Shown one piece after another: positions 15,997-35,481 of a stretch of 64,000 bases of DNA (positions within the stretch are counted from its first letter, which is position 1; each line of letters opens with the position of its first letter). Under the pieces are notes generated by a model. That model worked only from the letters and a program-made list of their open reading frames with translations. It was not told where the DNA came from and searched no databases. The position numbers and the translations under genes were made by a program. The DNA is from Minisyncoccota bacterium (GTDB taxonomy: Bacteria > Patescibacteriota > Minisyncoccia > Phycocordibacterales > Phycocordibacteraceae): positions 35,018 to 99,017 of the forward strand of contig JAGOQE010000002.1 of the NCBI GenBank assembly GCA_017991635.1, written 5' to 3'.

Positions 15997-16000
15997 CAGT

Positions 16001-16948: not shown

Positions 16949-17225
16949 CCGAACTATTCCACTTTTGAGTGCTACTGCCATCCTCCTCTTCGTAGGGTAT
17001 TTGGGTCTTATGGTGACCACTATTTCATTTGCAACGTGGCAGACAGAGCTTACGCGTGAAATGCGCGACACTGAAGTGCGTATCGCTTCTCTTGAGGGTC
17101 GCTACTATGACCTCATAAAGACCGTTGGAGCAGAGGACCCAAGCACCTTTGGACTTGTTGAGCCGCGCGCTGTGCGCTACGTTGCTGAGGCTTCTCGCAA
17201 TGACCTCTCACTTCGGGGGGAGTAG
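16941..17225 (+). CDS. ftsL: FtsL-like cell division protein (single TM plus coiled-coil)
   Basis: About 94 aa, bitopic, positioned between rsmH and ftsI. Start at internal MPDRTIPLL. Confidence 0.55.
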   Translation: MPDRTIPLLSATAILLFVGYLGLMVTTISFATWQTELTREMRDTEVRIASLEGRYYDLIKTVGAEDPSTFGLVEPRAVRYVAEASRNDLSLRGE

Positions 17226-17234
17226 TATGGTGCT

Positions 17235-18962
17235 ATGCGAAGAGCATTTAGAGCACGACTTCGTATCCTCATCGTAGGCGTATTTGCAGTAGCGCTCTTT
17301 CTTGTCCTTAGACTCTATTTTGTACAGGTAGTGCACCAGGAAGATTACGCGTTAAAGGCAGAACGTCAGTATGTAAGCTCAAGCGCACGTCTGTATGACC
17401 GTGGCGCTATTTTCTTTACGCGAAAGGACGGCACGCTCATTTCAGCAGCAACACTTGGAACTGGTTTCACCATTGCGATGGACCCGTCTCACGTCAAAGA
17501 CCCAGAGGCGCTCTACGCCTCTGTTTCAGCTCTCGCCACTATTGACCGTACAGCGTTTGACCAGAGCATCGCAAAGACTGATGACCCGTATGAAGTCCTC
17601 GTTAAGCAAGTTCCCGAAGACGTTGGTCAAATCCTGTCTGAGAAGAAGATTCCAGGGCTTATCATTGAGCGCAATCGTTGGCGCGAGTATCCTGCAGGTG
17701 ATATTGCCTCACAGACTATTGGTTTTGTTGCCTATGACCAAGATGTCTTGGTGGGGCGCTACGGACTTGAGCGCTACTACGAACAGACTCTGAGTCATAA
17801 CTCAGACGGACTGTTCGGAAACTTCTTTGCTGAACTGTTTGCAAGTTTGGATAACGTTCTTGCCGACGGAAAGGAGGCAAAGCAGGGAGACATCATCACT
17901 ACCATTGAACCAGTGGTTGCGGACAAACTTTCCAGCATTCTTGATGGTGTGCAGGCACAGTACGGAAGTGTTGAGACAGCCGGTATCATCATGAACCCAA
18001 AGACCGGAGAAATTATTGCTATGGAAGTGCGTCCAAGTTTTGATTTGAATAATTATCGCGAAGCAGACAGTAGTCGCTTCGCGAATCCCTTTGTTGAAGA
18101 CGTGCGTGAGTTCGGCTCCATCATGAAGCCACTCACGATGACTGCTGGCTTGGATGCTGGTGTGATTACACCGGAGACTACCTACAACGACACGGGCTGT
18201 ATTACAGTGAATAAAAGTAAAATCTGCAACTTTGACCTTCGGGGTCGTGGAGTGGTACCGATGCAACGCATTTTGTCCGACTCGCTTAATACGGGCGTAT
18301 CCTTTATTACAGGACAGCTAGGTCACGATAGATTCCGAGACTACTTTATGAAGCTTGGTTTTGGTACTGAAACAGGTATTGATTTGCCTGAGGAGACTCG
18401 AGGACTTGTAGAAAACTTGAAGAGTCCTCGCGATGTTGAGTACTACACCGCATCCTTTGGTCAGGGTGTTGCGGTGACTCCTGTTGAAATGATTCGTGCA
18501 CTCGGCTCACTCGCAAATGATGGACAAATCGTGACTCCACACTTGGTGAAATCTATTCGTCTTGAGTCAGGCATCATGAAGCAGTTGTCATGGGGTTCGC
18601 CTGAGCGAGTATTCTCTAAGGAGGCGACAGAACAAACCACGCATATGCTCGTGAAGGTGGTGGACGAGTCACTTGCACACGGCACGGTGAAAATTCCTGA
18701 AATGAGTGTTGCCGCAAAGACCGGTACGGCTCAGCTTGCCGGACCTGGAGGGAAGTACTATGAATCAAAGTACCTCCACTCCTTCTTCGGGTACTTCCCA
18801 GCGTACGACCCTGAATTTGTCATTCTCCTCTATACGCGCGAGCCACAGGGTGTACAGTATGCATCTGAGACCCTGACGCATCCCTTTATGGAGTTGACGC
18901 ACTTCCTCATCAGCTATTACGATATTGCCCCAGATAGGGCCGTATACGAAGACCCCTCGTAA
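17235..18962 (+). CDS. ftsI: Penicillin-binding protein (FtsI/PBP3-type divisome transpeptidase)
   Basis: N-terminal TM, PBP dimerisation domain and transpeptidase motifs (SIMKP, KTGTAQ). dcw synteny. Confidence 0.85.
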   Translation: MRRAFRARLRILIVGVFAVALFLVLRLYFVQVVHQEDYALKAERQYVSSSARLYDRGAIFFTRKDGTLISAATLGTGFTIAMDPSHVKDPEALYASVSALATIDRTAFDQSIAKTDDPYEVLVKQVPEDVGQILSEKKIPGLIIERNRWREYPAGDIASQTIGFVAYDQDVLVGRYGLERYYEQTLSHNSDGLFGNFFAELFASLDNVLADGKEAKQGDIITTIEPVVADKLSSILDGVQAQYGSVETAGIIMNPKTGEIIAMEVRPSFDLNNYREADSSRFANPFVEDVREFGSIMKPLTMTAGLDAGVITPETTYNDTGCITVNKSKICNFDLRGRGVVPMQRILSDSLNTGVSFITGQLGHDRFRDYFMKLGFGTETGIDLPEETRGLVENLKSPRDVEYYTASFGQGVAVTPVEMIRALGSLANDGQIVTPHLVKSIRLESGIMKQLSWGSPERVFSKEATEQTTHMLVKVVDESLAHGTVKIPEMSVAAKTGTAQLAGPGGKYYESKYLHSFFGYFPAYDPEFVILLYTREPQGVQYASETLTHPFMELTHFLISYYDIAPDRAVYEDPS

Positions 18963-18974
18963 TACCTATATTTT

Positions 18975-20261
18975 ATGAAACAAATACTCAAATCCATGGT
19001 TGCCGGTATCCTCGCCCTTTTTGCGAGAGCTATTATTCGCAAATATAAACCCTACGTAGTCATGATTACGGGTAGCGTGGGTAAGACATCCACCAAGGAT
19101 GCAGTTCACGCCGTACTCGCGTCCTCTACCTTCGTGCGTGCCAGTGAGAAGAGCTATAACAGTGAGTTTGGAGTACCGCTCACCATTATTGGCGCCAAGA
19201 ATCCCTGGAACAATCCTATTGCCTGGCTTCGTGTCTTTCACGAGGCCACCTTGCTTTTATGTACAAAAAATCATTTTCCTAAGACACTCGTTCTTGAAGT
19301 TGGGGCAGATAGACCAGGAGACCTCAAGAATATTTTAAAAATTGCCACACCAGACGCAGTCGTCGTAACAAAGCTTCCTGAAGTGCCTGTCCATGTTGAA
19401 GCGTACGCTTCTCCGAGCGCCGTTCGTGATGAGGAATTTCTCCCAGCATATGCACTTAAGTCCGGCTCTCCGCTCATCTTGAGTAGTGACGACCCCTACG
19501 CACGTGAGATGGCCTCTCGTATTCAAGCTAAGGTCACTACGTATGGCACCGCCCCTGACGCTGATGTGCGCCTATCGGAGCCACATATTCGCTTTATAGA
19601 GGATACGCCAGTTGGCATGGAAGCGACACTCACTATTAAAGGGAAGTCATATCCGCTTCAGGTAAATGGCGCTCTCGGTATTCCACAGCTCTACGCGCCC
19701 TCAGCAGCATTCGCGCTTGCGTATGAGCTTTCCATGAGTGAGGAGGATATCTTGAAAGGTGTCGCTTCCTATGTGTCTCCAGCAGGGCGGGGAAGAGTCC
19801 TTCGCGGAATCAACAACTCAGTTCTTATTGATGATACGTATAATGCCTCTCCTGCTGCAGTTGTAGAGGCTCTCAACAATCTCTCCTTTATCCCTAATCG
19901 TCGCCGTGTCGCTATTTTAGGTGACATGCTTGAGCTCGGTCGGTTCTCCATTGAGGAGCATGAGAAGATTGGAGTTCTCGCAAAAGAAAAAGCGGACGTC
20001 TTGGTTACGGTCGGTGTGCGCTCTCGGGAGACCTGCACGGCCTCAAAGAAGGCTGGTATGGAGGAAGCTGTCACACACTGCTTCGATAGTACAAAGGACG
20101 CACTAAAGGGCATTAGAGACCTCGTAGGGGAGGGTGATGTGATTCTCATAAAGGGCTCGCAGTCTATCCGTATGGAGCATATTGTTGAGACACTGCTTGA
20201 GAACCCTGATGATAGCCAGTATCTGGTCCGCCAGGATACGGAATGGAAATCTATTAAGTAG
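18975..20261 (+). CDS. murF: Mur ligase family, most likely UDP-MurNAc-tripeptide--D-Ala-D-Ala ligase
   Basis: ATP-binding TGSVGKTSTK and C-terminal IDDTYNASP motif. About 430 aa, in the dcw position after ftsI. MurE cannot be excluded. Confidence 0.65.
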   Translation: MKQILKSMVAGILALFARAIIRKYKPYVVMITGSVGKTSTKDAVHAVLASSTFVRASEKSYNSEFGVPLTIIGAKNPWNNPIAWLRVFHEATLLLCTKNHFPKTLVLEVGADRPGDLKNILKIATPDAVVVTKLPEVPVHVEAYASPSAVRDEEFLPAYALKSGSPLILSSDDPYAREMASRIQAKVTTYGTAPDADVRLSEPHIRFIEDTPVGMEATLTIKGKSYPLQVNGALGIPQLYAPSAAFALAYELSMSEEDILKGVASYVSPAGRGRVLRGINNSVLIDDTYNASPAAVVEALNNLSFIPNRRRVAILGDMLELGRFSIEEHEKIGVLAKEKADVLVTVGVRSRETCTASKKAGMEEAVTHCFDSTKDALKGIRDLVGEGDVILIKGSQSIRMEHIVETLLENPDDSQYLVRQDTEWKSIK

Positions 20262-20457: not shown

Positions 20458-20529
20458 GGCCTCATCGTCTAACGGTTAGGACAGATCCCTCTCACGGATC
20501 AAATCGGGGTTCGATTCCCCGTGAGGTCA
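20458..20529 (+). tRNA. tRNA-Glu (anticodon CUC)
   Basis: Cloverleaf folded by hand: 7-bp acceptor stem (one G-U), 4-bp D stem with a GG-containing loop, anticodon stem gatcc/ggatc with loop c-t-CTC-a-c, 4-nt variable region, T arm cgggg-ttcgatt-ccccg, discriminator A, no encoded CCA. 72 nt. Confidence 0.8.
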
Positions 20530-20541
20530 CAAATCGGCCAA

Positions 20542-20563
20542 CCCAAAAGCGTAAGCTTTTGGG
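20542..20563 (+). terminator. Hairpin directly after the tRNA (cccaaaagc-gtaa-gcttttggg)
   Basis: 9-bp stem with a GTAA loop, followed by ctgttgccgtttg. Confidence 0.4.
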
Positions 20564-20807
20564 CTGTTGCCGTTTGTAGACCTCACGGGAATCGAAGGAC
20601 GGAGGCCGCGAAGCCTTGCGAAGCAAGTGGCCGAGTCGGGCGTAGATTTTGTTGCGCGTGAGCGAGCTAGAAAATCAAGTGCAAAGCACTGCGAAATTTC
20701 AGCGGAAAATTATCTGTGGTCGATGGGCGCTCGTATTCCACACGAACGCAGTGACTCGGGAATATGCAGTCTCTTCATGAATTCACAGAAATATAAACCA
20801 CAGGCCT

Positions 20808-22931
20808 TTGACGTACAGATCAAATTTTATCCGCTATACTATATCTGTGGAATTTTTCTCGTACATTGGTTTACACACTCTATACTTGCTCGTTTTTTCT
20901 ATTGCCCTCGGGCTCGGTTTGGGTGCGTCTGCGCTGAGCCATATACTTTTTCTTTTTTCAGGTCGTGATCGAACAGTGTCGCGCGACGAGTTTAAATTGT
21001 TGAAAGTGTCGCGCATTGTGGTCTGGGTCGCAATTCTTTTGTATGGGTTTAGTGGACTAGGTCTCTTTACACTTGCGTATGAGTCGATGATTGAGCTTGG
21101 AATTTTTTACGCAAGCCTGACCATCGCAGTGATCCTTATCGGGAATGAAATTGTATTTGCTATGCGTCACCTACCTCGCGTGCGCGATATTCGCGACGGA
21201 AGGATCGCGCTCGATGCACTCGTTTTAGAAAGTGGGGCTGTATCCGCGGTCTCGTGGGTATTTTTAATGTTTCATCACACAATCTACAGGACTGATATAG
21301 GATATTTTGCATTTATGGCGCTTTACGCCGTGGCTATTGCTATTGTTATGCTTTTGACATGGACTGTACGCCGAAGAGATGCGCGCACTCACGACACAAT
21401 AGTGTTGAAGCGGTCAGTTCTTGCCGCTCTTTTTTTCGCACTTGTTTTTGCAGGTGCATGGCTCGCCAAGGCTGACAGCGTTATAAAGCCTGCCGAAATA
21501 GGAAAGCGTCTAGCCACCGAAGTTGTTGGCTCGACTTACACAATTGATGATGTTGCCCTTCATAATAATTCAGAGGATTGTTGGCTCGTCATTGATAGCA
21601 AGGTATTCAACGCGACTGAAGCGTCACGTCTTCATCCTGCAATGTTCAACTGTGGCGAGGAGGTGAGTGAGAATTATCACAAGAACCATGGCGAGGGCAT
21701 CAGAGATAAGATGATGAAGTACTACATAGGCGATCTTCGCAGCGGGAAAGGTGTAACGAATACCGACGCACCCTTCAAGAGGAACGAGACACTCAAACCG
21801 TACCGCGAGTTGTATGTTGACGAAGGATCGTGGAATGCACTTGAATTGATGCTTGTTGTTGAAAAAGATGCCGAGAAGCTCCTTGCTATCGACGGAACGA
21901 CGCACACGGTGATTGGGCGCGTGCACGATGTTGGTTTTCAGCCACACACCTCTGTCTACTCTTCGGATGCAAAATACATGTATATCATTTCTCGGGATGG
22001 ATGGCTCACGAAGATTGACCTAACTACTCTCGAGCCAGTCGCATCAGTGCTCGTAGGTGAGAATTCGCGCGGGACAGCTATCACTGATAACGATAAATAT
22101 GTTGCCATCGGCAATTACAATCCCGGGAATGTTGTTATCCTTGACGCTTCATCGATGGAAATTCTAAAAACTATACCGCTCTCGATGGAAAAGGATGGTA
22201 AACAGATTGAGTCTCGTGCGGGTGCAGTTGTCGAAGATGGAAATCGGATTATTGTTGCGCTTAAAGACGGGACCAGTGTTTGGGCGATAGATACTGACCA
22301 ATCTGGGTTCCCTGTGACGCATAAATTTTCGGACATAGGAGCCGGCAGGCCCGCGCTCCACGACGCCTTTCTCACACCAAATGGCTCGCATTATATTGTT
22401 GCATCGCAAGGATCGAAGACCGCATGGATACTTGATGTGGCGACCATGAAACCAGTTGCGGAGATAGAGACTGGCGATACACCGCACACGGGCCCGGGTG
22501 CTGCTTGGGGTAACTACATTTACATCCCGTCGTTGGGAGAGGGCCTTATTACTGTTATCGATATGACCACATGGAAGCCAGCGAAATATATAAAGACCGG
22601 CGGACCAGGTCTGTTTGTGCGGAGCTACAGTAAGGATCCGACCTATCCATATGTGTGGGCCGACACTGCATTCGGCGATCACAAGGATGAGATTTATGTT
22701 ATTGACGCGCGAGTCAATGAGATCGTGAAAACGATTATTCCGGTTAAGGGCGAAAGTTCGTGGCATCCGGAGTTCACCTATGATGGAAAATTTGTTTACG
22801 TTGTATCTCAATCTGCGAACGAAGTTGAGGTGTACGATGCGTACACCTTTGATATCGTAAAGCGCATTAAATCTGAGACACCTTCAGCGATATCTAACGT
22901 TGGCCTACGAATCGAAGAGCCAGGACTGTAA
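20808..22931 (+). CDS. Membrane-anchored fusion protein: N-terminal polytopic membrane domain, cytochrome b5-like heme-binding domain, C-terminal beta-propeller (YVTN/cd1-like repeats)
   Basis: Several N-terminal TM helices. The middle segment fits the cyt-b5 pattern (LHNNSEDCWLVIDSKVFNATEASRLHPAMF...YHKNHGEG). The C-terminal region has repeated beta-propeller-like blades. Confidence 0.6.
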   Translation: MTYRSNFIRYTISVEFFSYIGLHTLYLLVFSIALGLGLGASALSHILFLFSGRDRTVSRDEFKLLKVSRIVVWVAILLYGFSGLGLFTLAYESMIELGIFYASLTIAVILIGNEIVFAMRHLPRVRDIRDGRIALDALVLESGAVSAVSWVFLMFHHTIYRTDIGYFAFMALYAVAIAIVMLLTWTVRRRDARTHDTIVLKRSVLAALFFALVFAGAWLAKADSVIKPAEIGKRLATEVVGSTYTIDDVALHNNSEDCWLVIDSKVFNATEASRLHPAMFNCGEEVSENYHKNHGEGIRDKMMKYYIGDLRSGKGVTNTDAPFKRNETLKPYRELYVDEGSWNALELMLVVEKDAEKLLAIDGTTHTVIGRVHDVGFQPHTSVYSSDAKYMYIISRDGWLTKIDLTTLEPVASVLVGENSRGTAITDNDKYVAIGNYNPGNVVILDASSMEILKTIPLSMEKDGKQIESRAGAVVEDGNRIIVALKDGTSVWAIDTDQSGFPVTHKFSDIGAGRPALHDAFLTPNGSHYIVASQGSKTAWILDVATMKPVAEIETGDTPHTGPGAAWGNYIYIPSLGEGLITVIDMTTWKPAKYIKTGGPGLFVRSYSKDPTYPYVWADTAFGDHKDEIYVIDARVNEIVKTIIPVKGESSWHPEFTYDGKFVYVVSQSANEVEVYDAYTFDIVKRIKSETPSAISNVGLRIEEPGL

Positions 22932-22981
22932 GTCAGCACACCTCTTGCAATCGGAGCAGACGAAATATTAAACGGTCGAGT

Positions 22982-24004
22982 TTGCATGCTAAAATCCCCT
23001 CAATGCGCCCCCTACGTCTCCGCAAACTCCTCAAACGCAAACTCCCACTCCTCGTCTTCCTCATTCTCCTCGTTGTAGCTTTCTCTGTCGCATTTTATAT
23101 ATACCGAAACTCTCCCGTAGAGCCTCTAAGCCCCGAGGCATACAAAGAACTTGAGGCAAGGCTTGTAACACTTGTTGAGGACGAGGACCCGCGCGTCGCA
23201 CTCCATGCTCTACAAGAAGAAATTGATAGAAGTGAGAGTGTACTTCGCTCATGTCATGGCTTGGTACACGAAATAGGACATGAGGCATATGAGAAATACG
23301 GAGACGTGGCGAAGGCATTTTCATACCGAGACGAAATCTGCGGGGCAGGGTACATACACGGCGTGATTGAGTCCTATATGGATGATAAGGGGTTTGAGGA
23401 GAGTGAACTTTCTTCTATTTGCACTTCGTATAAAGGGGAAGATCGCGATAACTGCTTCCATGGTGTGGGGCATGGACTCATGTTCTATACGAGAAATGAT
23501 GTACCCGCGTCTATAACGTCATGTCATGCACTTACGGACGCGAAAGCACGTATGCGGTGTGCCGAGGGAGTCTTCATGGAGAACTTTGAGAGTGACGATG
23601 TCTTCCACCTCTCTGAGTATGTGGATGATAACGACCTCTTTGGAATTTGCAGGGAACAAAAAGAAATCTATCAAAAGGGTGCGTGTTACTTCTACGCACC
23701 ACTCTTTTATTTGAATGAACATGAGCGGGATTACGCCGACATGTTTGCATTGTGTAGGGAAGCTGAGGCTCCCTATATTTCTACCTGTATAAAAGGTACT
23801 TCAAGTAGGGTCACGAAGGAGAATATTGAACGCCCATCTCTAGTCTCTTCATACTGTATGAAGCAGAAAGGGTATGAGGGTGCGTGCGTTGAGGGAATAG
23901 GAAGTTACTACTATACGCACTACGGCGACACGAAAAAGGTAGAGGAACTCTGCAGTAAGGTTGCAAAGGATTATATGTCTGCCTGTACGAGCACGCTTAA
24001 GTAA
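22982..24004 (+). CDS. Hypothetical membrane-anchored Cys/His-rich repeat protein
   Basis: N-terminal TM followed by about seven spaced C-x-x-G/E-x-x-H/Y units: SCHGLVHEIGH, ICGAGYIHG, NCFHGVGHG, RCAEGVF, GACYFYAPL, TCIKGTS, GACVEGIGSYYY. Confidence 0.5.
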   Translation: MHAKIPSMRPLRLRKLLKRKLPLLVFLILLVVAFSVAFYIYRNSPVEPLSPEAYKELEARLVTLVEDEDPRVALHALQEEIDRSESVLRSCHGLVHEIGHEAYEKYGDVAKAFSYRDEICGAGYIHGVIESYMDDKGFEESELSSICTSYKGEDRDNCFHGVGHGLMFYTRNDVPASITSCHALTDAKARMRCAEGVFMENFESDDVFHLSEYVDDNDLFGICREQKEIYQKGACYFYAPLFYLNEHERDYADMFALCREAEAPYISTCIKGTSSRVTKENIERPSLVSSYCMKQKGYEGACVEGIGSYYYTHYGDTKKVEELCSKVAKDYMSACTSTLK

Positions 24005-24047
24005 AAACAGAAAAGCTCCACCAAAAGGCAAAGCCTTTCCGTAGAGC

Positions 24048-24365
24048 CTAGAAATTCCTGCGTTTTGTTCGTGTCAGTTCAGGCCAGATAGGCAGGCAGA
24101 GGACGACGATGAAAAGGAGAGCAAGGAAGGCAAGCACACTGCTTGTGGTCACGAAATAGTCACGCGGAGAGTGCTTCCAGCCAAGCCAGAAACACACACC
24201 ACAACACAAGGACCAGAAGAGGGAGTACGACCACGCGATGATTCGGTGCTGTGCCTTAGAGGCGCTCATGCGTAAGAGCGCGACTACCACAAAAACGAGA
24301 AAGAAGTTCAGTACAAACACTATAGTCCAAACGAGCACAGGAATGCTGATTCCAGCTTTTTCCAT
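24048..24365 (-). CDS. Hypothetical small polytopic membrane protein
   Basis: Start moved to the internal ATG (MEKAGISIP...), which has a GGAGGA SD 6 nt upstream. The longer GTG-started ORF in the track would overlap the divergent promoter. Confidence 0.5.
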   Translation of the reverse strand: MEKAGISIPVLVWTIVFVLNFFLVFVVVALLRMSASKAQHRIIAWSYSLFWSLCCGVCFWLGWKHSPRDYFVTTSSVLAFLALLFIVVLCLPIWPELTRTKRRNF

Positions 24366-24432
24366 AGCGTTTCCTCCAGTTTCTACCTCTACGCTATGAC
24401 CTAGAAGGCATAAAATCAAGCCCTCTAGGTAC

Positions 24433-24461
24433 TTGACTTTTGACACTATGTGTGATAATAT
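24433..24461 (+). promoter_or_regulatory. Sigma70-like promoter for the GC-rich gene: TTGACT ... TGtGATAAT (extended -10)
   Basis: TTGACT at 24433-24438. TGTGATAAT at 24451-24459 (alternatively read as TAATAT at 24456-24461 with a 17-nt spacer). Sits in an AT-rich 163-bp spacer 70 nt upstream of the 24529 ATG. Confidence 0.4.
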
Positions 24462-24528
24462 ATATGTACGTCAGGAAGGCTGACGAAGTACCTCAACATC
24501 AATCAGTTTACCTCTGGAGACGACCCAC

Positions 24529-25596
24529 ATGACCCAGTCCCAAGAAGCGCGTTTCGACTTCCCGGGTTTCAACCTGGTGAAGACGCAGGACAACGACCGC
24601 CACCAGGTGGAAGTCGGCACGATCGAGGACGGGGACCACGTGTTCACCGTCACCATGATCCGCAGCCAACAGCACCAGTTCCTCCCGTTCGCCATCTCGA
24701 CGGTGGCCGACAAGGACGGCAAAAAGATCTGGACCTTCCAGGGCGCCAAGCACGACGGTGTCGGCCTTCTGGCCTACGCCGGCGATGTGCCCGTCATCGC
24801 GCTCATCACGCGCGGCAAGGATCCCATCGTCGAGCGGGTCATTCCGCTCACTTCCCTGGTCAGCAACAAGCCCGTCGGGCTTCGTGAACTGATCAAGGGC
24901 AAGATGGGCGCCGCCATCGACCTCGACTGCCGCTACCGGCTGACCGAGGACGAGGGGAAGGTCGTCAAGATCGACGAAGGCCGGATGCACGCCGAGATGG
25001 TCCGCAAGGACCGCGAGGCGAGCGAGCGTCGGAACTCGGCCCGCGATGCGGAGAAAATCCGCAGGCAGGAAGAGGCCCGGGCACAAGAGGCGGAGCGCGA
25101 AAAGCGCGTCGCCCTGATCATGATCCGGGAAATCGTCACGGGCTACACCGCCCTGGGCGAACGGCGCTACGGCACTCCGGTCCTCGAGGCCGAGTGGCAG
25201 TCGCTTCCGAACGGCACCTTCGCCATTCTCGTCGACGCCATCGGCGAAGACGGGAAGGTCGGCAAACTGCTCGAAAGCTTCAAGATCGTGAAGCAGGCGG
25301 GCAGGCAACCGATGAAGGTGATGACCAGCCAGCTGGCCGCCAGGCAGGAAGGTCCGACGGAAATTCCGGAGGAGCTTCAGCCCACGGGCACGGTTCTGGT
25401 GGAGATCAAGGACGACTTCTTCAATGTCGGCCTCTACGCCTCCAAGGACCTGATCAACAGGGCCTGGAAGGCCGGTCTCAACGGCGGCGCCTATGTGGCC
25501 GTCGACGACCGTGACGCCGACGGCAAACTGGTCGTCTTCACCGTCACGAAGGAAACCGGCGCCAAGAAGGTCGGCTCCTTCATCCCCCTCGGCTAG
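24529..25596 (+). CDS. Hypothetical protein encoded by a strongly GC-rich (foreign-looking) ORF: two globular regions joined by a highly charged E/R-rich helix
   Basis: 355 aa; GGAG SD 9 nt upstream. The third codon position is almost always G or C (GAC, GGC, CTG, ATC, AAG, CGC...). Followed by a textbook intrinsic terminator. No family recognised. Confidence 0.6.
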   Translation: MTQSQEARFDFPGFNLVKTQDNDRHQVEVGTIEDGDHVFTVTMIRSQQHQFLPFAISTVADKDGKKIWTFQGAKHDGVGLLAYAGDVPVIALITRGKDPIVERVIPLTSLVSNKPVGLRELIKGKMGAAIDLDCRYRLTEDEGKVVKIDEGRMHAEMVRKDREASERRNSARDAEKIRRQEEARAQEAEREKRVALIMIREIVTGYTALGERRYGTPVLEAEWQSLPNGTFAILVDAIGEDGKVGKLLESFKIVKQAGRQPMKVMTSQLAARQEGPTEIPEELQPTGTVLVEIKDDFFNVGLYASKDLINRAWKAGLNGGAYVAVDDRDADGKLVVFTVTKETGAKKVGSFIPLG

Positions 25597-25645
25597 TCCG
25601 AGTACTGCACCTTAGGCCCCACCCAATTGGCCTTTCAAATGGGAA

Positions 25646-25678
25646 CCCCGTAGTCATGCGACTACGGGGTTTTGTTTT
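25646..25678 (+). terminator. Intrinsic terminator of the GC-rich gene
   Basis: Perfect 10-bp stem ccccgtagtc / gactacgggg with an atgc loop, followed by TTTTGTTTT. Confidence 0.7.
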
Positions 25679-25686
25679 ATACAGAG

Positions 25687-25717
25687 CGCCCCTGAAGACC
25701 TTCGGTCTTCAGGGGCG
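25687..25717. other. Second GC-rich hairpin (about 14-bp stem, 3-nt loop) between the convergent genes
   Basis: gcgcccctgaagacc-ttc-ggtcttcaggggcg. No clear T-tract on either strand. Confidence 0.4.
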
Positions 25718-25720
25718 TCT

Positions 25721-26035
25721 TCATTGCAGTGTCTTAAATTTTGTCGGATCAAGACCCGCAAGAACATTTATGGTGTGTTCACCAGGCACGGGCTCTGTGG
25801 GCACGTGAATCAATGCACACTCAGGAGAGAGACAGACGCCATCGCGTAGTTGCGTCAGGCACATAATGGCTCTCTCAAGCATCTCAGTAATGGCGAGAGT
25901 TGAAGCACTTTGAAGGAGGGACTTCTTTGTGCTTGTAATCACTCCGTCATAGATGACGGCACCGAAGCTTGACCCTTCAAATTCAAAGTCAAGAATCCAC
26001 GAGCCAGGTTGGTTCGGAAACAACAGGTCGTTCAT
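25721..26035 (-). CDS. Hypothetical protein (104 aa), downstream of truB on the same strand
   Basis: Host-like composition; no motif recognised. Confidence 0.45.
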   Translation of the reverse strand: MNDLLFPNQPGSWILDFEFEGSSFGAVIYDGVITSTKKSLLQSASTLAITEMLERAIMCLTQLRDGVCLSPECALIHVPTEPVPGEHTINVLAGLDPTKFKTLQ

Positions 26036-26071
26036 GGGTGTCTCCCAAGCAACGTCTAGAAAAACTCTACC

Positions 26072-26881
26072 CTAGGAAAAGCGCTTAAGCCAGAGACGAA
26101 GAAGGGGGAAGTATCTACCAATAGTTGTGCGGTGAATAGAGAGAGCGAGCCCGTTCGTGGCAAGGTTCTCTCCTATTCTTCCTGAAAGCGAACGCATGTA
26201 CGCTCCACTTCCTGAAATTACCCGTATACGAAGAACGGTAAAAGATTCCTGCGACGTAGTGGCAAAAAGTTCATCCCATGACTTCGTGATGGCATCAATT
26301 CTAAAATCGGCACCCAAATGTTTTGAAGGCTCGGTTGTCCGTGGTGTCTTATCCAAATGTTCACGTACACGCTCCATAAGCTCAGCCTTGGTGTAGGTAT
26401 TTCGCTCAATGAGACGAATAGCATAGAAGGCTTCTTGGTGTGTGGGGATGGTGATGTTTGCGAGCGTGCCTTCAAGTGCGTGTAGGAATAATGGCTTACC
26501 TGAAACAGTCTTGGAAGAAAATGCGGGGTAGGGAACTGCATGCACTCCTACAAGTGGTGTGAGCGCTTTGCGAATCTCATCGTCTGACACTGTCACGCCC
26601 TTTCCTTCGTGTGGAAGTCCAAGCACGTCCCCAGTATCGCTCCCGACACCAAGCAGTACTTCTACAATGTATTCCTTATCAAGCTTGGTGAAGTGGCGCT
26701 GGCGCTTGCACGTGTCTCCTACAAGTACGAGAAGCTTCCCGCTTGCCATAGGGTCAAGCCGTCCTGCGTAGGAGAGGCGTGTATCGTCAGGCATGGCGTG
26801 CTTCTCTTTAAGCTTCGTTACTACTTCAAGGGGCGTCTGGCCGACTTCTTTTTCAGCGATGACATAGGGAGGAAGGTTCAT
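26072..26881 (-). CDS. truB: tRNA pseudouridine synthase (TruB-like)
   Basis: Catalytic-Asp motif GRLDPMASG, 269 aa, PUA-less short form. Confidence 0.75.
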   Translation of the reverse strand: MNLPPYVIAEKEVGQTPLEVVTKLKEKHAMPDDTRLSYAGRLDPMASGKLLVLVGDTCKRQRHFTKLDKEYIVEVLLGVGSDTGDVLGLPHEGKGVTVSDDEIRKALTPLVGVHAVPYPAFSSKTVSGKPLFLHALEGTLANITIPTHQEAFYAIRLIERNTYTKAELMERVREHLDKTPRTTEPSKHLGADFRIDAITKSWDELFATTSQESFTVLRIRVISGSGAYMRSLSGRIGENLATNGLALSIHRTTIGRYFPLLRLWLKRFS

Positions 26882-26916
26882 AGGTTCACAGTACGTGCTT
26901 TGTATGAAAAGGAAAA

Positions 26917-26949
26917 GGCCGGTTTGAAAGCTGTGCTTTCAAACCGGCC
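26917..26949 (-). terminator. Intrinsic terminator of the small GC-rich gene (minus strand)
   Basis: Perfect 15-bp stem ggccggtttgaaagc / gctttcaaaccggcc with a 3-nt loop, followed on the minus strand by TTTTCCTTTTC. It ends 35 nt before the truB ATG. Confidence 0.65.
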
Positions 26950-26974
26950 CTGTCGTGTGTCCTGACTTCGGCGC

Positions 26975-27277
26975 TTACTGCACCGTCGCCGGGACTCCCA
27001 GATGACGCTTGATGCGGTCGGCGAGCGTTCTGGACTCACGAGCGATGCCCGTGTAGTGGCAGAACTTGCCGACCTTGGTGATCTCGACCTTGCCGTCCTT
27101 GTGGACGATGTCGAGCGTGCCGCCGTAGACTTCCTGCAGGGCCTCGTAGGCCGAAACGGGAATGGCGCCGGCGCGGTCGGGCATCCAGGCCTTTATGGGA
27201 AGCTCGACCCCCTTGGAGGTGAGTCCCGTAGCCGGCGGCTTCTGGACGACGGCTTCAAAGTCGATATTGCTGGCCAT
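26975..27277 (-). CDS. Hypothetical small protein (100 aa) encoded by a GC-rich ORF
   Basis: AGGGGG SD 6 nt upstream of the ATG. G/C-dominated third codon positions like the 24529..25596 gene. No family recognised. Confidence 0.55.
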   Translation of the reverse strand: MASNIDFEAVVQKPPATGLTSKGVELPIKAWMPDRAGAIPVSAYEALQEVYGGTLDIVHKDGKVEITKVGKFCHYTGIARESRTLADRIKRHLGVPATVQ

Positions 27278-27359
27278 GTGGCCCCCTGTTGAGTGGTTTT
27301 TGAGTTTACTAAAACACCATCATTGGAGCGCACCTTATACTCGATGTGCTTCCTTTACT

Positions 27360-27368
27360 ATTATACCA
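27360..27368 (-). promoter_or_regulatory. Extended -10 promoter element TGgTATAAT (minus strand) for the small GC-rich gene
   Basis: A perfect TATAAT hexamer preceded by TGn on the minus strand, about 83 nt upstream of the ATG at 27277. The surrounding sequence is AT-rich. Confidence 0.45.
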
Positions 27369-27385
27369 TAATTATGAAAAAAGCG

Positions 27386-27421
27386 AAAGGACGGCAACCG
27401 GGGTTAATCGGGCCGTCCTTT
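27386..27421 (-). terminator. Intrinsic terminator of the 27429..27857 gene (minus strand)
   Basis: 10-bp stem aaaggacggc / gccgtccttt, with an inner extension, followed on the minus strand by CGCTTTTTTC. Confidence 0.6.
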
Positions 27422-27428
27422 GCATAGG

Positions 27429-27857
27429 CTAGAAAAGCATTACGCGTTGCCCGCTCTTCTCCTCGCCAAAGAGGCTTGGATCAAGAAGCGTGCGTGACGT
27501 GACTGATTCTGGCGCAGGTGCTCTACGTTGTCTGGCGTAGTGCGCTCTGTTTGAAAACAGTTTGCTCACCGCGGAACTATAGGCATCAAACCTGACGCTG
27601 TCGTTCCTGCACTGCTGAGGCAGGAGTCGAAGCAGCGTTTCGCGCTTGGCCGTGTAGAAACTCTTCGGCCGGCGTCTGTGCTTCGTGTACCAGTGAACAC
27701 CGACAGCGTTCGCGAGTGTGCGAAGCATGTCTGGATCAAGTGTGGCACCCAAAACGACACGCTTATCTTTTCCGCGACCTACTGTGTGATCGCTACTAGC
27801 ATATGCAATTCCCTTGGCCACATCGGCCGTGGAGAAATGCAGAAATGAACTCTCCAA
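27429..27857 (-). CDS. Hypothetical Arg-rich protein (142 aa), TTG start
   Basis: TTG start with an AGGAGG SD 7 nt upstream. Consensus-like promoter upstream and terminator downstream. No family recognised (contains HWYTKHRRRP). Confidence 0.5.
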   Translation of the reverse strand: MESSFLHFSTADVAKGIAYASSDHTVGRGKDKRVVLGATLDPDMLRTLANAVGVHWYTKHRRRPKSFYTAKRETLLRLLPQQCRNDSVRFDAYSSAVSKLFSNRAHYARQRRAPAPESVTSRTLLDPSLFGEEKSGQRVMLF

Positions 27858-27908
27858 CGACGCCTCCTATGGCTACAGGGAAACAAGTATCAATGTTCTT
27901 TGCTCTAA

Positions 27909-27936
27909 ATTCTAGTATATAACTTAGACTTGTCAA
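27909..27936 (-). promoter_or_regulatory. Sigma70-like promoter TTGACA-N16-TAGAAT (minus strand) for the 27429..27857 gene
   Basis: Perfect -35 TTGACA (27931-27936, overlapping the yqeY stop) and -10 TAGAAT (27909-27914). Confidence 0.45.
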
Positions 27937-28427: not shown

Positions 28428-31112
28428 ATGGATTCCCTGTGGCACTCGTTGAGTGAAGTTGAAACTGCAAATCAACTCAGTACCGATTTAGAGAAGGGAC
28501 TTACGACCCTTGAGGCGGAGCTTCGTCTTAAAGAAGGCACGAACGGTCTCCCAGAGGGAAAGAAAGATACGCTCTTTCTACGTATTCTTAGACAATTTAA
28601 AAGTCCTATTGCTCTCGTTCTCATTCTTGCAGCGCTCGCAACACTTTTCATAAGTCACGTGACTGACGCTGTGGTTATTGCGGTCGCCCTTCTTGTGAAC
28701 GTAATCATCGGCGTCTTTCAGGAGGGAAGGGCAGGCAATGCCTTTAAGAAGCTCAAGGAAAGCTCTGCATCTTTTGCTGTAGTTATCCGCGACGGTAAGA
28801 AGAAAGAGGTGCAAAGCAGGGATGTGGTGCCAGGTGATGTTGTTGTGCTCATGCTTGGTACAAAGGTACCCGCTGATGTCCGGCTCACGGAAGCGCACGG
28901 ACTCTCGCTTCAAGAGGCACAACTAACGGGTGAATGGGTACCGTCAGAGAAGGGAGAGAATGCTGTTCATGCTGAGGCACCACTCGCCGAGCGCAGTTCA
29001 ATGGCGTATGCAGGCTCACTCGTTTCTTCTGGAACTGGACAGGGAATCGTCGTTGCTACAGGTACGAAGACTGAAATTGGTGCTATTGCTAAGGCACTTC
29101 TCACCAGCCAAGAAAGTGAAACACCATTACAGAAAGACTTGGCGAAGATTGCAAACCTTCTTCTCTTCATTAGTGTCATCACGCTTGTTGTTATTTCAGC
29201 ACTCGCACTCATACGTGGAGTGTCGCTTGCTGACACAATGCTCATCGCGATTTCTATTGCCGTGTCGTCTATTCCTGAAGGGTTGCCTGCTGCAGTGACG
29301 GTAGTGCTCGCTCTTGGTATGGAGCGTATTTTGAAATCAGGAGGGCTCGTGCGTTCACTTGTCGCTGCTGAAACTCTGGGTGCGACGAGTGTCATTCTGA
29401 CAGACAAAACAGGAACACTAACTGAAGGCTCGATGCGCGTGTCGGGCGTCATCACGCTTTCTGGAACCACTGAAGAGGTGGCGAGCGAACAAGCTAAAGG
29501 AATTCTTCGAGCAGCACTTCTTGCTACAGAGGGATACCTTGAAGAAAAGGATGGACCTTCACCCGAGGGTGAGACGGTAGTGGCGCACGGTCGACCGGTG
29601 GAACAGGCAGTCATGTTGGCCGCACTTCGTGCTGGAATGTCTGAGAGCGAGTTCCGCGGAAAGTTTCCAAAAATTGACCTTATTCCATTTGCGTCTGAAC
29701 GCCGGTTTGGCGGTTCTCTCGTGCGGGAGGGCGATACGCACATGCTCTATGTCACCGGAGCACCTGAACTACTACTCTCACGCGCCGTGTGCACTAAAGG
29801 GGAAGCGTGTCGCGCACTCGTGAAGGCAGAACATGACGTACTCAATGAGGCGTTGGTGCGTGCTGCTCGTGAGGGAATGCGAGTGCTTGCTGTTGGAGAG
29901 CGCTCGTGGAGAGAACCTGACTTGCCTGAAGGCGAAGAAGAGCGTGATCAATTATTGTCTGAAGTGCACGTTCTCGGGCTTCTCTTGCTCTCAGACCCAA
30001 TTCGCAGTGAGGCACGTCAGGCGGTCGTGAGTATGCAGGAGGCAGGTGCTCGCGTGATTATGCTTACGGGTGACAATCCAGAAACTGCGCTTTGGGCCGC
30101 GCGTCTCACCAACATTGCTCAGGAAGGCGACACTGCGCTTACCGGTGTGGAGATACAGAACCTCTCAGATGAGATGTTGCTTGAAGCACTGCGCACGAAG
30201 AGCGTATTTGCGCGCGTGGCACCTGCCGATAAGATGCGCATTGCGCGTGTTTTGGAGGATGCGGGTGAAGTTGTTGCTATGACTGGAGACGGTGTGAATG
30301 ATGCGCCAGCGCTTCAACAGGCATCTATTGGCGTTGCGCTTGGAAGTGGTACTGATGTCGCAAAGGAAGCTGCTGACATTGTGCTTCTGACAGATAGTTT
30401 CTCCGTAATTACTGTCGCAATCTCAGAGGGGAGACGGCTTCGCGACAATATTAAGAAGATTTTTGTGTACATGCTCTCCACAAACTTTAGCGAGACATTT
30501 CTCATTACCGTTGCACTCTTCTTTGGACTTCCGCTTCCAATTCTTCCAACGCAGATTCTTTGGGCGAATCTTATTGAAGGAGGACTCATGAACGTTGCTC
30601 TTGCCTTTGAGCCCTTGTACCCATCAGCAATGCGTCGCTCGCCCAAGGATGATGAAAATGCCCACGTTATCTCAAAGAATGTACTTAAGCTTATTATCGT
30701 CATTGGTCTTCTTACCGGCCTGCTCTTACTCTCACTCTACTTAGTTCTTCTTGGTATTGAGTTGCCTGAAGGGGAGCTTCAAACAGCAATGTTTGTCGCA
30801 CTCTCACTCTCTTCAGTCTTTGGCGCTTTCTCTATGAAGAGCTTTGGAACACCGCTCTGGCGTCTTAATCCAAAAGGAAATCCGTTTCTTTTGATTTCAC
30901 TTCTCGTGAGTTTCCTCATGCTCGGTGTGGCGCTCTTCGTGCCTCAGGTGTCCATGATTATCAAAACCGTACCGCTTCATGGAGTAACGCTTGCTGCGCT
31001 TGCGGTCGTTGGAGTTCTCAACCTCATCATTATTGAGACGGTTAAGTATCTGCTCTACATTCGTCCTGAGGAAAAGAGAAAGGGCAGGGAAGGTGGTGAA
31101 CCTGTATACTAA
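28428..31112 (+). CDS. P2-type cation-transporting P-type ATPase (Ca2+/Mg2+-like)
   Basis: DKTGTLT phosphorylation motif, TGDGVNDAPAL, PEGLPA in M4, ten TM helices, 894 aa. Confidence 0.88.
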   Translation: MDSLWHSLSEVETANQLSTDLEKGLTTLEAELRLKEGTNGLPEGKKDTLFLRILRQFKSPIALVLILAALATLFISHVTDAVVIAVALLVNVIIGVFQEGRAGNAFKKLKESSASFAVVIRDGKKKEVQSRDVVPGDVVVLMLGTKVPADVRLTEAHGLSLQEAQLTGEWVPSEKGENAVHAEAPLAERSSMAYAGSLVSSGTGQGIVVATGTKTEIGAIAKALLTSQESETPLQKDLAKIANLLLFISVITLVVISALALIRGVSLADTMLIAISIAVSSIPEGLPAAVTVVLALGMERILKSGGLVRSLVAAETLGATSVILTDKTGTLTEGSMRVSGVITLSGTTEEVASEQAKGILRAALLATEGYLEEKDGPSPEGETVVAHGRPVEQAVMLAALRAGMSESEFRGKFPKIDLIPFASERRFGGSLVREGDTHMLYVTGAPELLLSRAVCTKGEACRALVKAEHDVLNEALVRAAREGMRVLAVGERSWREPDLPEGEEERDQLLSEVHVLGLLLLSDPIRSEARQAVVSMQEAGARVIMLTGDNPETALWAARLTNIAQEGDTALTGVEIQNLSDEMLLEALRTKSVFARVAPADKMRIARVLEDAGEVVAMTGDGVNDAPALQQASIGVALGSGTDVAKEAADIVLLTDSFSVITVAISEGRRLRDNIKKIFVYMLSTNFSETFLITVALFFGLPLPILPTQILWANLIEGGLMNVALAFEPLYPSAMRRSPKDDENAHVISKNVLKLIIVIGLLTGLLLLSLYLVLLGIELPEGELQTAMFVALSLSSVFGAFSMKSFGTPLWRLNPKGNPFLLISLLVSFLMLGVALFVPQVSMIIKTVPLHGVTLAALAVVGVLNLIIIETVKYLLYIRPEEKRKGREGGEPVY

Positions 31113-31118
31113 AGCCAT

Positions 31119-32171
31119 ATGGAAGTCTTGCTCATCATTGGTCTTGTTGTCGTAGTTCTGTTGCAGGGTATTGGTATCTTTGTGTTTTTGAAGGGAAGAC
31201 AGGCCCCAAAGGAAGACGGCACGGGGTTAGTGTTGATTCAAAAGCAAATGGAGAATCTTGAACGTTCTCTTGATACGCGTATGGCTGACTCATCTCGTCA
31301 GATGCACGAGACGATGCGTAGTCAGGTTGGAGAATCTACTCGTTTGATTAGAGAGATTACTGAGGAAATTACTTCAGTAAAGGAAATCAGTAGGCAGACT
31401 GGTGAATTTGCAAAGGAACTGCAGTCACTTTCTGACGTGCTTAAAAATCCAAAGCAACGTGGAGTACTTGGTGAGTACTATCTTGAGACGGTGCTTAAAA
31501 ATGTGCTTGCTCCAGGTATGTATCAGATTCAGTATCCGTTCAAAAACGGAGAGATTGTGGATGCGGCAGTCTTTGTGAATGATAAAATCGTACCGATTGA
31601 CTCAAAGTTCTCTCTTGAAAATTACAATCGCTTCATTCATGCAAAGGAGCCTGCAGAGAAGATTGCTCTAGAGAAGGCATTCGTGAATGACCTTAAGATG
31701 CGTATCACAGAAACGGCAAAATACATTCGACCAGAGGAAGGGACTATGGACTTCGCTTTCATGTTTATTCCTTCAGAGGGTATCTACTATGACCTTCTTG
31801 TAAATCAGGTGGGAGCCGGAGAGGACGAGAACCTTATCCAACGAGCAGCAAGTAAGTACAAGGTCATCATCGTGTCACCGACATCATTTCTTGCGTACTT
31901 GCAGACCGTGCTTCAGGGACTTCGCGCTCTTTCAATTGAGCAGAAGGCTGTTGAAATTCAAAAGCGTGTGGGAGAGCTTGGTAAGCACGTGGCAAGTTAC
32001 GAGACGTACTACAAGAAGCTCGGTACTGCTCTTGGTACTGCTGTCTCGCACTACAACACAGGCTATAAGGAACTCGGAAAGATTGATAAGGATGTGTATC
32101 GTATCAGCGAAGAAAAGATTGGAATTGAAGCGGAACTACTCGAGAAGCCATCTGAGGATGATGACGATTAG
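31119..32171 (+). CDS. rmuC: DNA recombination protein RmuC
   Basis: N-terminal TM, coiled-coil and a conserved RmuC C-terminal region. Confidence 0.75.
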   Translation: MEVLLIIGLVVVVLLQGIGIFVFLKGRQAPKEDGTGLVLIQKQMENLERSLDTRMADSSRQMHETMRSQVGESTRLIREITEEITSVKEISRQTGEFAKELQSLSDVLKNPKQRGVLGEYYLETVLKNVLAPGMYQIQYPFKNGEIVDAAVFVNDKIVPIDSKFSLENYNRFIHAKEPAEKIALEKAFVNDLKMRITETAKYIRPEEGTMDFAFMFIPSEGIYYDLLVNQVGAGEDENLIQRAASKYKVIIVSPTSFLAYLQTVLQGLRALSIEQKAVEIQKRVGELGKHVASYETYYKKLGTALGTAVSHYNTGYKELGKIDKDVYRISEEKIGIEAELLEKPSEDDDD

Positions 32172-32181
32172 ATAAAGCAAT

Positions 32182-32204
32182 CGCCCGAGCTTGTGACTCG
32201 GGCG
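32182..32204. terminator. Bidirectional terminator hairpin between rmuC and the convergent 32211..32495 gene
   Basis: 8-bp stem cgcccgag / ctcgggcg with a 7-nt loop; T-rich flank on the minus strand. Confidence 0.45.
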
Positions 32205-32210
32205 TGCGCT

Positions 32211-32495: not shown

Positions 32496-32574
32496 CTTTC
32501 AGGAGTCATTGCAAGAGGGCAGGTACGCTCATTTAGGTGTATAGTCTTCAAAGAAACAGCACAGGGGACTAGTC

Positions 32575-32775: not shown

Positions 32776-32874
32776 GTGCCCCAAAGGCCAAAAGGGCCCA
32801 TATAAGCGACTTCGCCACCCTGAGAACTCGGGGTGGCTTGCTTTTTAGGGCTGAAATAGTAAGATGTGGGGATT

Positions 32875-33192: not shown

Positions 33193-33244
33193 ACAAACAC
33201 TCCCGAAAGGGAGTTTTTGCTATCTCGCGGGATATACTTTTTGC

Positions 33245-34095: not shown

Positions 34096-34098
34096 AGA

Positions 34099-35463: not shown

Positions 35464-35481
35464 CCGCTTGATTGTAGCACT

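Follow-up and report, generated by a model that had tools for sequence, protein, structure and literature searches.

Genomes of the Candidate Phyla Radiation (CPR, or Patescibacteria) are small and often treated as static, with few recognized mobile elements. Integrases of the phiC31 and Bxb1 type belong to large serine recombinase (LSR) elements and prophages, and the 3' ends of tRNAs are not a classic LSR target. Parts of the literature on the Islander and TIGER catalogs describe genomic islands targeted to tRNA genes (PMC4383910, PMC12424338), with tyrosine integrases named as the usual catalyst (PMC4383910). In Prochlorococcus, tRNA-anchored islands hold transient integrase-bearing elements in some genomes, and successive integrations are parted by partial tRNAs. 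These islands consist mostly of left-behind cargo without mobility genes, and a minority of the tycheposons involved use LSRs and carry primase modules (bioRxiv 10.1101/2020.12.28.424599). Here, we analyze the junction of murF, a tRNA-Glu(CTC) gene, and truB/yqeY in a Minisyncoccota bacterium (GenBank assembly GCA_017991635.1, contig JAGOQE010000002.1). The stretch analyzed, hereafter the window, is 64,000 nt long with a GC content of 48.9%, and contains a flexible islet between the tRNA and truB (20531-26071). We conclude that this junction is probably a clade-wide hotspot of recombination and integration that coincides with an old rearrangement breakpoint.

Like tRNA-targeted islands, the locus has an intact tRNA gene at one boundary, here tRNA-Glu(CTC), and cargo that varies beyond the 3' end of this gene. 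As in those islands, too, relatives differ in whether the cargo is there, parts of the tRNA 3' end recur as tandem copies, and other genomes have integrase-bearing elements at the same site. It differs in that the islet in the window has no integrase inside it and no displaced, intact tRNA 3' fragment as a direct repeat at its far end. Further differences are that the integrases of the relatives are LSRs and that the host is a CPR bacterium. The likeness to the Prochlorococcus tycheposon islands is one of concept: a streamlined genome, a conserved tRNA-adjacent position, and, across the clade, transient integrase-bearing occupants together with partial tRNA repeats. Unlike those islands, the variable intervals described here are much smaller (0.1-9 kb), and a PrimPol and LSR pair was found only at another locus (L098 and L099). 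We therefore place the main finding among tRNA-targeted islands, conceptually those seeded by tycheposons, and a structured module behind the tRNA is the part that could be new.

Open reading frames (ORFs) of the window were assigned to families by NCBIfam and Pfam profile searches, and tRNAs were called with ARAGORN and Rfam, which agree that the sole tRNA in the window is tRNA-Glu(CTC) at 20458-20530 on the plus strand. This conserved neighbor of murF (18975-20261, plus) is the anchor and putative attB-like site of the hotspot. Behind it, the islet comprises a structured trailer module (20531..20787, plus) and five genes, ending at the core gene truB (26072..26881, minus; TIGR00431, PF01509), which forms the right-hand anchor of the variable interval. 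The first islet gene, Cytb5D1 (20808..22931, plus), matches Cytochrom_D1 (7e-68) and Cyt-b5 (8e-07) of Pfam. It is followed by CysHis340 (22982..24004, plus), encoding a membrane-anchored Cys/His-rich protein of 340 aa without a Pfam, NCBIfam, or PHROG match, and by TM132 (24048..24446, minus), encoding a small transmembrane protein. The last two are ORF355 (24529..25596, plus), a GC-rich member of an orphan CPR family, and hyp104 (25721..26035, minus), encoding a 104-aa hypothetical protein. A second small variable slot of ~0.5 kb (26882-27428) follows truB and holds ORF100 (26975..27277, minus), a GC-rich member of an orphan family of ~100 aa. Beyond it lie hyp142 (27429-27857, minus), encoding a conserved 142-aa protein whose homologs adjoin yqeY in L041 and L055, and the core gene yqeY itself (27933-28475, minus; PF09424).

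Homologs of the window MurF come from sources with Parcubacteria or Paceibacterota names, which puts the genome in the Paceibacteria of the CPR. We took loci around murF from 80 species-level GTDB relatives (L009-L088), having MurF 53-62% identical to that of the window, and mapped the window proteins onto them. A tRNA-Glu(CTC) follows murF in 60 of the 80 relatives, lying on the plus strand in 38 and on the minus strand in 22. At plus-strand loci the 5' side is tight, with the tRNA beginning a median of 57 bp past murF, and the distance from the tRNA to truB or yqeY ranges from 15 to 6478 bp (median 1669 bp; 5545 bp in the window). The gap after murF extends from 138 bp (L062) to 9 kb (L038), with different content in almost every relative. 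Most gap ORFs (216 of ~320) are singletons, and the 146 largest cover 126 Pfam families, the commonest of which is Resolvase with five members. They encode transporters, response regulators, methyltransferases, a beta-lactamase-family protein, DNA methylases, restriction subunits, and pilin-like proteins. Judged by presence and absence in the manner of TIGER, the window islet genes are missing from all 80 relatives; this holds for CysHis340, for hyp104, and for Cytb5D1 at the murF/tRNA site. The two tRNA orientations are interleaved (L035 minus/L018 plus, L073 plus/L079 minus, L065 plus/L059 minus) in a neighbor-joining (NJ) tree of two to four proteins with weak, midpoint rooting. This interleaving implies that the tRNA and its module have flipped together locally, many times and independently.

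At least six relatives have LSR genes or fragments at this same end of the tRNA. In L021, L029, and L073, a 534-aa LSR with Resolvase, Recombinase, and Zn-ribbon domains is encoded immediately 3' of the tRNA, on the other strand. L075 and L086 have fragments of this protein, and a different LSR abuts the tRNA in L050. In L060, which is sister to L029, a terminator hairpin (GGAAAAAGCGCCC...GGCGCTTTTTC) comes immediately after the tRNA. In L029 this hairpin is displaced ~3.9 kb downstream, with the recombinase and two orphan ORFs in between, and the insertion junctions (marked by a slash) read ..GGTCAC/AAAAAG and ..CCTCAC/CAAAG. Comparison of L029 with the empty site of L060 identifies a precise insertion between the 3' end of the tRNA and its terminator. 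An integrase gene beside its attachment site, along with an empty site for comparison, is thus found in L029 versus L060 and is not found in the window. The relatives' elements resemble known LSR elements in their domain architecture, in the position of the integrase gene by the attachment site, and in the few bases shared at the junctions of L029. These candidate elements differ from LSR elements and prophages in being tiny (~3.9 kb) and lacking phage genes. Outside the murF locus, a related LSR abuts the 3' end of tRNA-Ser(CGA) in L130 (5323-6917).

Under the mechanism that we propose, the 3' end of the tRNA would act as an attachment site, where LSR-bearing elements such as those of the relatives would insert exactly between the tRNA and its terminator. 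Short structured noncoding modules, delimited by copies of that 3' end, would also build up there. Cargo left behind would stay without an integrase, and might then spread among related lineages through further site-specific events or through homologous recombination on the conserved flanks. We infer that the window islet may have arrived via an LSR-type element, and the same caution extends to which enzyme acted and in which direction transfer ran.

Divergence between closely related lineages drops at the tRNA. For this comparison we used L002, an ENA sediment contig having a MurF 93% identical to that of the window, and L097, a contig from the same sample that begins where L002 ends. Both are short metagenome contigs that we assumed to belong to one shared genome. 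In the 6 kb of genes preceding the tRNA, the window and L002 were 83.1% identical at the nucleotide level, compared with 99.1% in the 2.49 kb behind it. Identity with L097, which also has homologs of TM132 and hyp104, was 91-98% in the Cys/His gene and fell to ~80% in truB. Synonymous divergence (dS) was high in the left core (MraZ 1.14, RsmH 1.30, FtsI 1.08, MurF 0.73) and in the right core (TruB 1.06, hyp142 1.83). Within the islet it was 0.019 for Cytb5D1 (versus L002) and 0.17 for CysHis340 (versus L097), followed by 0.22 for TM132, 0.32 for ORF355, and 0.66 for hyp104. The left edge of the low-divergence tract is therefore sharp and falls at the tRNA, where dS changes from 0.73 to 0.019. 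On these short metagenome contigs, islet divergence is far below that of the flanking core for the same pair of genomes, which is the pattern of horizontal exchange, and the window islet appears to have been exchanged recently between lineages.

The same results bear on whether any mobility needs to be invoked. The junction could instead be a fast-evolving intergenic neighborhood that is inherited vertically, with lineage-specific gain and loss of genes and without site-specific mobility or recent transfer. Such an account would fit the presence of the islet genes in the same order in the sister lineage, the genome-typical GC of most of them, and the lack of an integrase or att repeat in the window. 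We nonetheless consider it improbable, given that the dS step is located exactly at the tRNA and that LSR genes, including one precise LSR insertion, are found at the same tRNA end in relatives. It is also at odds with the distribution of Cytb5D1, which occurs at the same site in lineages that are not sisters and near PrimPol and LSR genes elsewhere.

The Cytb5D1 protein consists of an N-terminal segment with multiple transmembrane helices, a cyt-b5 domain, and a beta-propeller of the heme-d1 type (NirN/NirF-like), for which the best PDB matches are NirN (6rtd) and NirF (6tv2). Its likely start is the ATG at 20847, giving 694 aa. The family has at least 208 scored homologs, and all sources naming an organism give Patescibacteria/CPR. 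Two contigs, L100 and L101, carry a 76% identical Cytb5D1 at the same site in the order MurF, tRNA-Glu, Cytb5D1, a 102-aa ORF, and TruB. L100 groups with L014 and L022, which are without Cytb5D1, and closer relatives of both lineages are also without the gene. An 86% identical homolog stands in an unrelated context, 6-10 kb from PrimPol and LSR genes (L098 and L099; L099 17790-18147).

The junction also coincides with a break in the dcw cluster of cell wall and division genes, whose canonical order is mraZ-rsmH-ftsL-ftsI-murE-murF-mraY-murD-ftsW-murG and onward. A preliminary description of this DNA had placed mraZ-rsmH-ftsL-ftsI-murF on the plus strand up to 20261 and the continuation, mraY-ftsW-murG with a dacA-like gene, on the minus strand 29 kb away, and the profile searches and gene strands bore out both halves and their mutual inversion. 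The proximal half (15562..20261, plus) consists of MraZ (15562-15996), RsmH (matched by NCBIfam/Pfam) and then an FtsL-sized ORF, FtsI (17235-18962), and MurF. The distal genes (49164-54656, all minus) are MurG (49164-50318), FtsW (51438-52553), MraY (52558-53619), and the DacA-like protein (53616-54656). The proximal and distal orders are thus each kept as in the canonical cluster. Unlike that cluster, this one is broken after murF, has neither murE nor murD in the expected places, and has its distal part within trpS-aspS-scpAB-dacA...gltX on the opposite strand, a state found clade-wide.

From this arrangement the preliminary description had concluded that an accessory region inserted at tRNA-Glu parted and inverted the two halves. 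The tRNA does mark the exact point past murF where the cluster breaks, accessory genes come right behind it, and the four relatives in which the two parts are collinear (L032, L042, L067, and L085) have no tRNA-Glu within 10 kb of murF. However, the 20-41 kb between the halves are made up of housekeeping genes, and ~49 of the 80 relatives, 45 of which could be measured end to end, have these in the window order. After murF come a 0.1-9 kb gap, truB where present (minus), yqeY (minus), the P-type ATPase gene where present (plus), rmuC (plus), recR, dnaB, cysS, and corA (all minus), and the S41 protease gene (plus). The mraZ-rsmH-ftsL-ftsI-murF order was found in all 80, truB is present after murF/tRNA-Glu in at least 28, and murF is not followed by a same-strand mraY in the window or in most relatives. 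The split even persists where the spacing is just 138 bp from murF to yqeY, tRNA included (L062), or just 170 bp from murF to truB (L020), and the islet itself is no larger than 5.5 kb. GC skew, proposed earlier as a check, has no break at the tRNA (20.3-20.5 kb), and its sole sign change is near 55 kb. We regard a causal role for the islet as very improbable, and the split appears instead to be an old rearrangement of core genes common to most relatives, because the break at murF persists with the same core order in ~49 of 80 relatives and even across gaps of 138 or 170 bp.

Parts of the preliminary description survive this conclusion. Its choice of the tRNA-Glu at the start of the intervening DNA as an integration target gained support from the LSRs that at least six relatives carry at that end of the tRNA. 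Its suggestion of an island holds for the ~5.5 kb after the tRNA and for the ~0.5-kb slot after truB, but not for the rest of the 29 kb, which consists of conserved core genes. Even the interval that it singled out (20458-27936) takes in the core genes truB and hyp142. The comparison with related genomes that it had called for located the variable boundary at the tRNA and revealed an inversion relative to one relative, but the same split order is present in most of the others. That one relative is L085, in which MurF is followed on the plus strand by TrpS, AspS, M17, ScpA, ScpB, DacA, MraY, FtsW, MurG, and GltX, the exact reverse complement of the gene order at 47.7-61.4 kb of the window. Relative to L085, ~41 kb of the window (~20.3-61.4 kb) are inverted, which places mraY-ftsW-murG on the opposite strand. 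In L032, L042, and L067, MurF is followed after 2.6-4.4 kb by MurG, GltX, and M23 on the plus strand, and nine further loci have 4-10 kb of unrelated DNA after murF. The 3' junction of murF is a recurrent breakpoint because L085, L032/L042/L067, and the nine other loci all differ there. In the NJ tree the split arrangement is found in every major branch, and the collinear loci are nested among them. Two gap ORFs after murF in relatives carry a DnaA C-terminal domain, and the murF junction may adjoin the replication origin region in some genomes.

Several observations weigh against a hotspot driven by site-specific integration at the tRNA. Family searches of the window ORFs found no integrase, excisionase, transposase, replication, or phage gene, in line with the earlier remark that no integrase or transposase was visible, and PHROGs gave no significant match for nine window ORFs examined for a prophage. 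A downstream att-like direct repeat, which the preliminary description had suggested looking for, did not turn up in intact form: searches with the 3' 22-mer of the tRNA (up to 3 mismatches) and with its 15-mer (up to 2 mismatches) returned only the tRNA and a chance-level match at 34398. The 3' 23-mer of the tRNA has no exact match in IMG/VR viral contigs. Accordingly, the limits of the 5.5-kb islet are not marked by any intact direct copy of the tRNA's 3' end, and the 257-bp module is bounded only by an inverted copy and by a relic decayed to 10/17 bases. In 22 relatives the tRNA points toward murF and variable DNA flanks both of its sides. The apparently exchanged genes Cytb5D1 and CysHis340 have a base composition typical of the genome. 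On the right, the low-divergence tract fades out along a gradient instead of ending in a step, a pattern that homologous recombination explains no worse than site-specific integration does. In L002 a chimera joined at the tRNA is conceivable, although a simple chimera is disfavored by the intermediate dS values across the islet. Finally, the midpoint-rooted NJ tree is too weakly rooted to rank the arrangements of the large rearrangement by age.

The gradient gives the most direct opening to a different explanation, in which the islet spreads purely by homologous recombination on its flanks (tRNA/murF and truB/yqeY) and the tRNA serves as a block of homology rather than as an attachment site. 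Divergence climbing gradually from 0.02 to 0.66 toward truB is what such a process could leave behind, as is the lack of an integrase in the window, and the gain, loss, and hybrids of units seen among strains (L093 and L094, below) are explicable by recombination between repeats. Yet the left boundary falls within a few bases of the tRNA 3' region and not elsewhere in the 6 kb of conserved dcw genes, and recombinase-bearing elements use precisely this point. Furthermore, Cytb5D1 shares the site in lineages having core genes only ~60% identical, too divergent for efficient homologous exchange. We judge an origin purely by homologous recombination to be unlikely but worth serious consideration, and favor a hotspot at which the tRNA end is itself the site of integration.

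The module behind the tRNA is unusual in its own right. In the window (20531-20787) it comprises a terminator-like hairpin (20543-20564), an inverted copy of the tRNA 3' end (~20575-20596), and tail hairpins, with a decayed direct copy of the tRNA 3' end, matching at 10 of 17 bases, at 20770-20786. The inverted copy corresponds to the T-arm and the acceptor 3' strand (ttcgattccc-gtgaggtc, 20575-20596). The fold energy of the module is -71 kcal/mol (z = -6.5), and it belongs to 'unit B', a class without hairpin HP2. Homologous units were found in L002, L046, L066, L088, L132, and L134, and examples of the module include L002 6150-6640, L014 11596-12063, L088 11259-11535, L126 2680-2851, and L141 3845-4018. 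Modules are 170-260 nt long and occur behind tRNA-Glu genes in many Paceibacteria. A unit begins at the 3' end of the tRNA, holds several hairpins as well as a stretch that pairs with the T-arm and acceptor 3' strand of that tRNA, and closes with a further copy of the tRNA 3' end. Among the relatives, ~22 have related units behind tRNA-Glu, in some cases as tandem sets of two or three, and whichever way the tRNA points, these always lie on its 3' side. Behind the L088 unit come another tRNA 3' end and the original terminator, and so this unit behaves as an insertion would.

We scanned metagenomes for the module pattern and obtained 40 matches, 19 of them directly 3' of a tRNA-Glu. Thirteen of these 19 follow tRNA-Glu(TTC) at another locus, usually tRNA-Ser(CGA)/tRNA-Glu(TTC), and six follow tRNA-Glu(CTC) near murF. 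In an alignment of 13 sequences, 97.3% of cells were paired, and compensatory changes occurred in 22 of 50 pairs, compared with 10.4 +/- 1.9 in shuffles (0 of 500 reached the observed value) and 4-10 when partners were slid. Between the antisense segment and the acceptor of the neighboring tRNA, too, the sequences covary. Rfam reported only the tRNA above its gathering threshold across the whole window, and nothing credible at E <= 1-10 for two module examples. Two contigs from the same JGI sample have near-identical modules, one after tRNA-Glu(CTC) at murF (L136 6678-6851) and the other after tRNA-Glu(TTC) at a tRNA-Ser/Val locus (L141 3845-4018). They differ by compensatory changes in one hairpin (CCC/GGG versus AAC/GTT), which points to paralogous units whose structure is constrained, possibly in a single genome.

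Folded attC sites characterize integron cassette arrays, and the 3' external transcribed spacers of tRNAs act as small RNAs. The module resembles these systems, in appearance only, through its head-to-tail units, shared site-like ends, compensated structure, and position after a tRNA. It is unlike integrons in being noncoding, 170-260 nt long, and without an integron integrase or attC consensus. Tentatively, the modules might constitute an undescribed family of structured, noncoding insertion elements specific to tRNA-Glu or, alternatively, a functional 3'-trailer RNA. Such units could make the tRNA end a site of cargo capture and perhaps also one of the breakage behind the local tRNA flips and larger inversions found across the clade.

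Strain variation at the module raises the question of whether the junction was assembled correctly. All Logan (k=31) contigs of the window strain and close strains break in or at the tRNA (window ~20487-20515: the ends of L001, L005, and L007, and the starts of L093-L096), as might be expected of a mis-join or chimera at a conserved tRNA. These breaks are instead explained by strain variants of the module array that directly follow the tRNA. Same-species strains (98.3% identical) differ right after the tRNA: L093 has an extra 213-bp unit bounded by an intact 20-bp repeat (TTCCCCGTGAGGTCACAAAT), an extra unit that L002 of the sister lineage also has, and L094 has a hybrid unit. Megahit and metagenome-assembled genome (MAG) contigs span the tRNA. 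The junction is spanned in a 165-kb NCBI MAG contig that encodes an identical ORF355, in the ENA contig L002, in the 644-kb contig L101, and in 45 independent relatives. An assembly artifact is therefore scarcely credible, and we treat the junction as genuine in reading it as a hotspot.

Base composition was among the features that had drawn attention to the region. The atypical genes listed in the preliminary description, namely Cytb5D1, CysHis340, and the GC-rich ORFs, are indeed present, but as a sign of an island the GC-richness of ORF355 is ambiguous: its homolog in the sister lineage is equally GC-rich, and similar ORFs lie outside the islet. GC content at third codon positions (GC3) is ~0.45 for the genome and 0.48 for both Cytb5D1 and CysHis340. 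It is 0.87 for ORF355 (overall GC 0.64) and 0.83 for ORF100, both of which favor C-ending codons (GGC 0.73, GCC 0.76, GTC 0.71, ATC 0.83). Small orphan ORFs with raised GC3 are also found outside the islet, at 14784-15197 (minus, 0.64) and 61397-61723 (minus, 0.65). The L097 homolog of ORF355 has a GC3 of 0.88 at a dS of 0.32, and in three other CPR genomes, members of the family likewise exceed their hosts in GC3. ORF355 has apparently occupied this place since the sister lineage split off or longer, and composition seems of little use as an island marker at this locus. A recent high-GC donor fails as an explanation for ORF355, given the GC3 of the sister at that dS and the similar richness in three CPR genomes. 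High expression was not adopted as a cause either, the L21 gene of the window having an ordinary GC3 of 0.49.

ORF355 and ORF100 have no BLASTP similarity and so are not seen as paralogs. The NCBI MAG contig with the identical ORF355 protein is labeled 'Candidatus Pacebacteria bacterium'. ORF355 has fourteen homologs, with unrelated contexts in the three that were looked up, and an AlphaFold2 model (pLDDT 85) gave no PDB fold match at E <= 0.001. A diversity-generating retroelement (bAvd and reverse transcriptase) lies near one homolog in L090 (16247-17011). In the slot between truB and hyp142 (window 26882-27428; L097 3872-4412), both lineages have a GC-rich ORF of ~100 aa. The two slot proteins are only 25% identical, with N-termini that look alike by eye, and the neighboring genes are 79-87% identical. 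Either the slot gene evolves very fast, or it has been replaced.

The remainder of the window is occupied by core genes. A block of mixed strand (28428..47734) contains genes for a P-type ATPase, rmuC, L21, recR, dnaB, cysS, and corA, continuing up to 47734 with an S41 protease, L9, an RNase T-like protein, LOG, ABC, HhH-GPD, and an M23 peptidase. The distal block (47737..61397) is on the minus strand except for bacA, and contains gltX, murG, hyp363, ftsW, mraY, the dacA-like gene, and scpB, followed by scpA, an M17 peptidase gene, aspS, ham1, and trpS. GltX (47737-49167, minus) and ScpB (54547-55263, minus) flank the distal dcw genes. Among dcw genes, murE is not between ftsI and murF (17235-20261), and none of murD, murC, ftsQ, ftsA, or ftsZ was found among the window ORFs searched. 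The 428-aa MurF aligns to TIGR01143 only from profile position 118 on, and its N-terminal domain looks reduced or divergent. A 363-aa ORF without a family match (hyp363; 50344-51435, minus) sits between ftsW and murG, where murD might be expected, and has no counterpart between these genes in L085. The bacA/uppP gene (55165-55953, plus) is wedged between scpA (55950-56684) and scpB, its raw ORF overlapping that of scpB, and in L085 scpA is directly beside scpB with no gene between. Cumulative GC skew climbs from position 1 to ~55 kb and then drops to ~61 kb, with the turn at scpB/bacA. This turn at ~54-56 kb could reflect a replication terminus-like switch or a gene-strand effect.

These results have implications for how genes are gained in streamlined bacteria and for how such loci are annotated. 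A broken dcw cluster beside a tRNA mimics the insertion of an island, and here the break appears to be an old rearrangement of the core. In the structured module that follows tRNA-Glu, the locus also offers a testable candidate for a miniature mobile element or RNA of a new type. Cytb5D1 is widespread in CPR and evidently mobile, which bears on how redox functions are acquired in this group. More generally, the locus would represent a defined, clade-wide site for the entry and exchange of foreign genes between lineages with ~17% core nucleotide divergence. The agents visible in relatives are large serine recombinases, in parallel with Prochlorococcus, another streamlined lineage.

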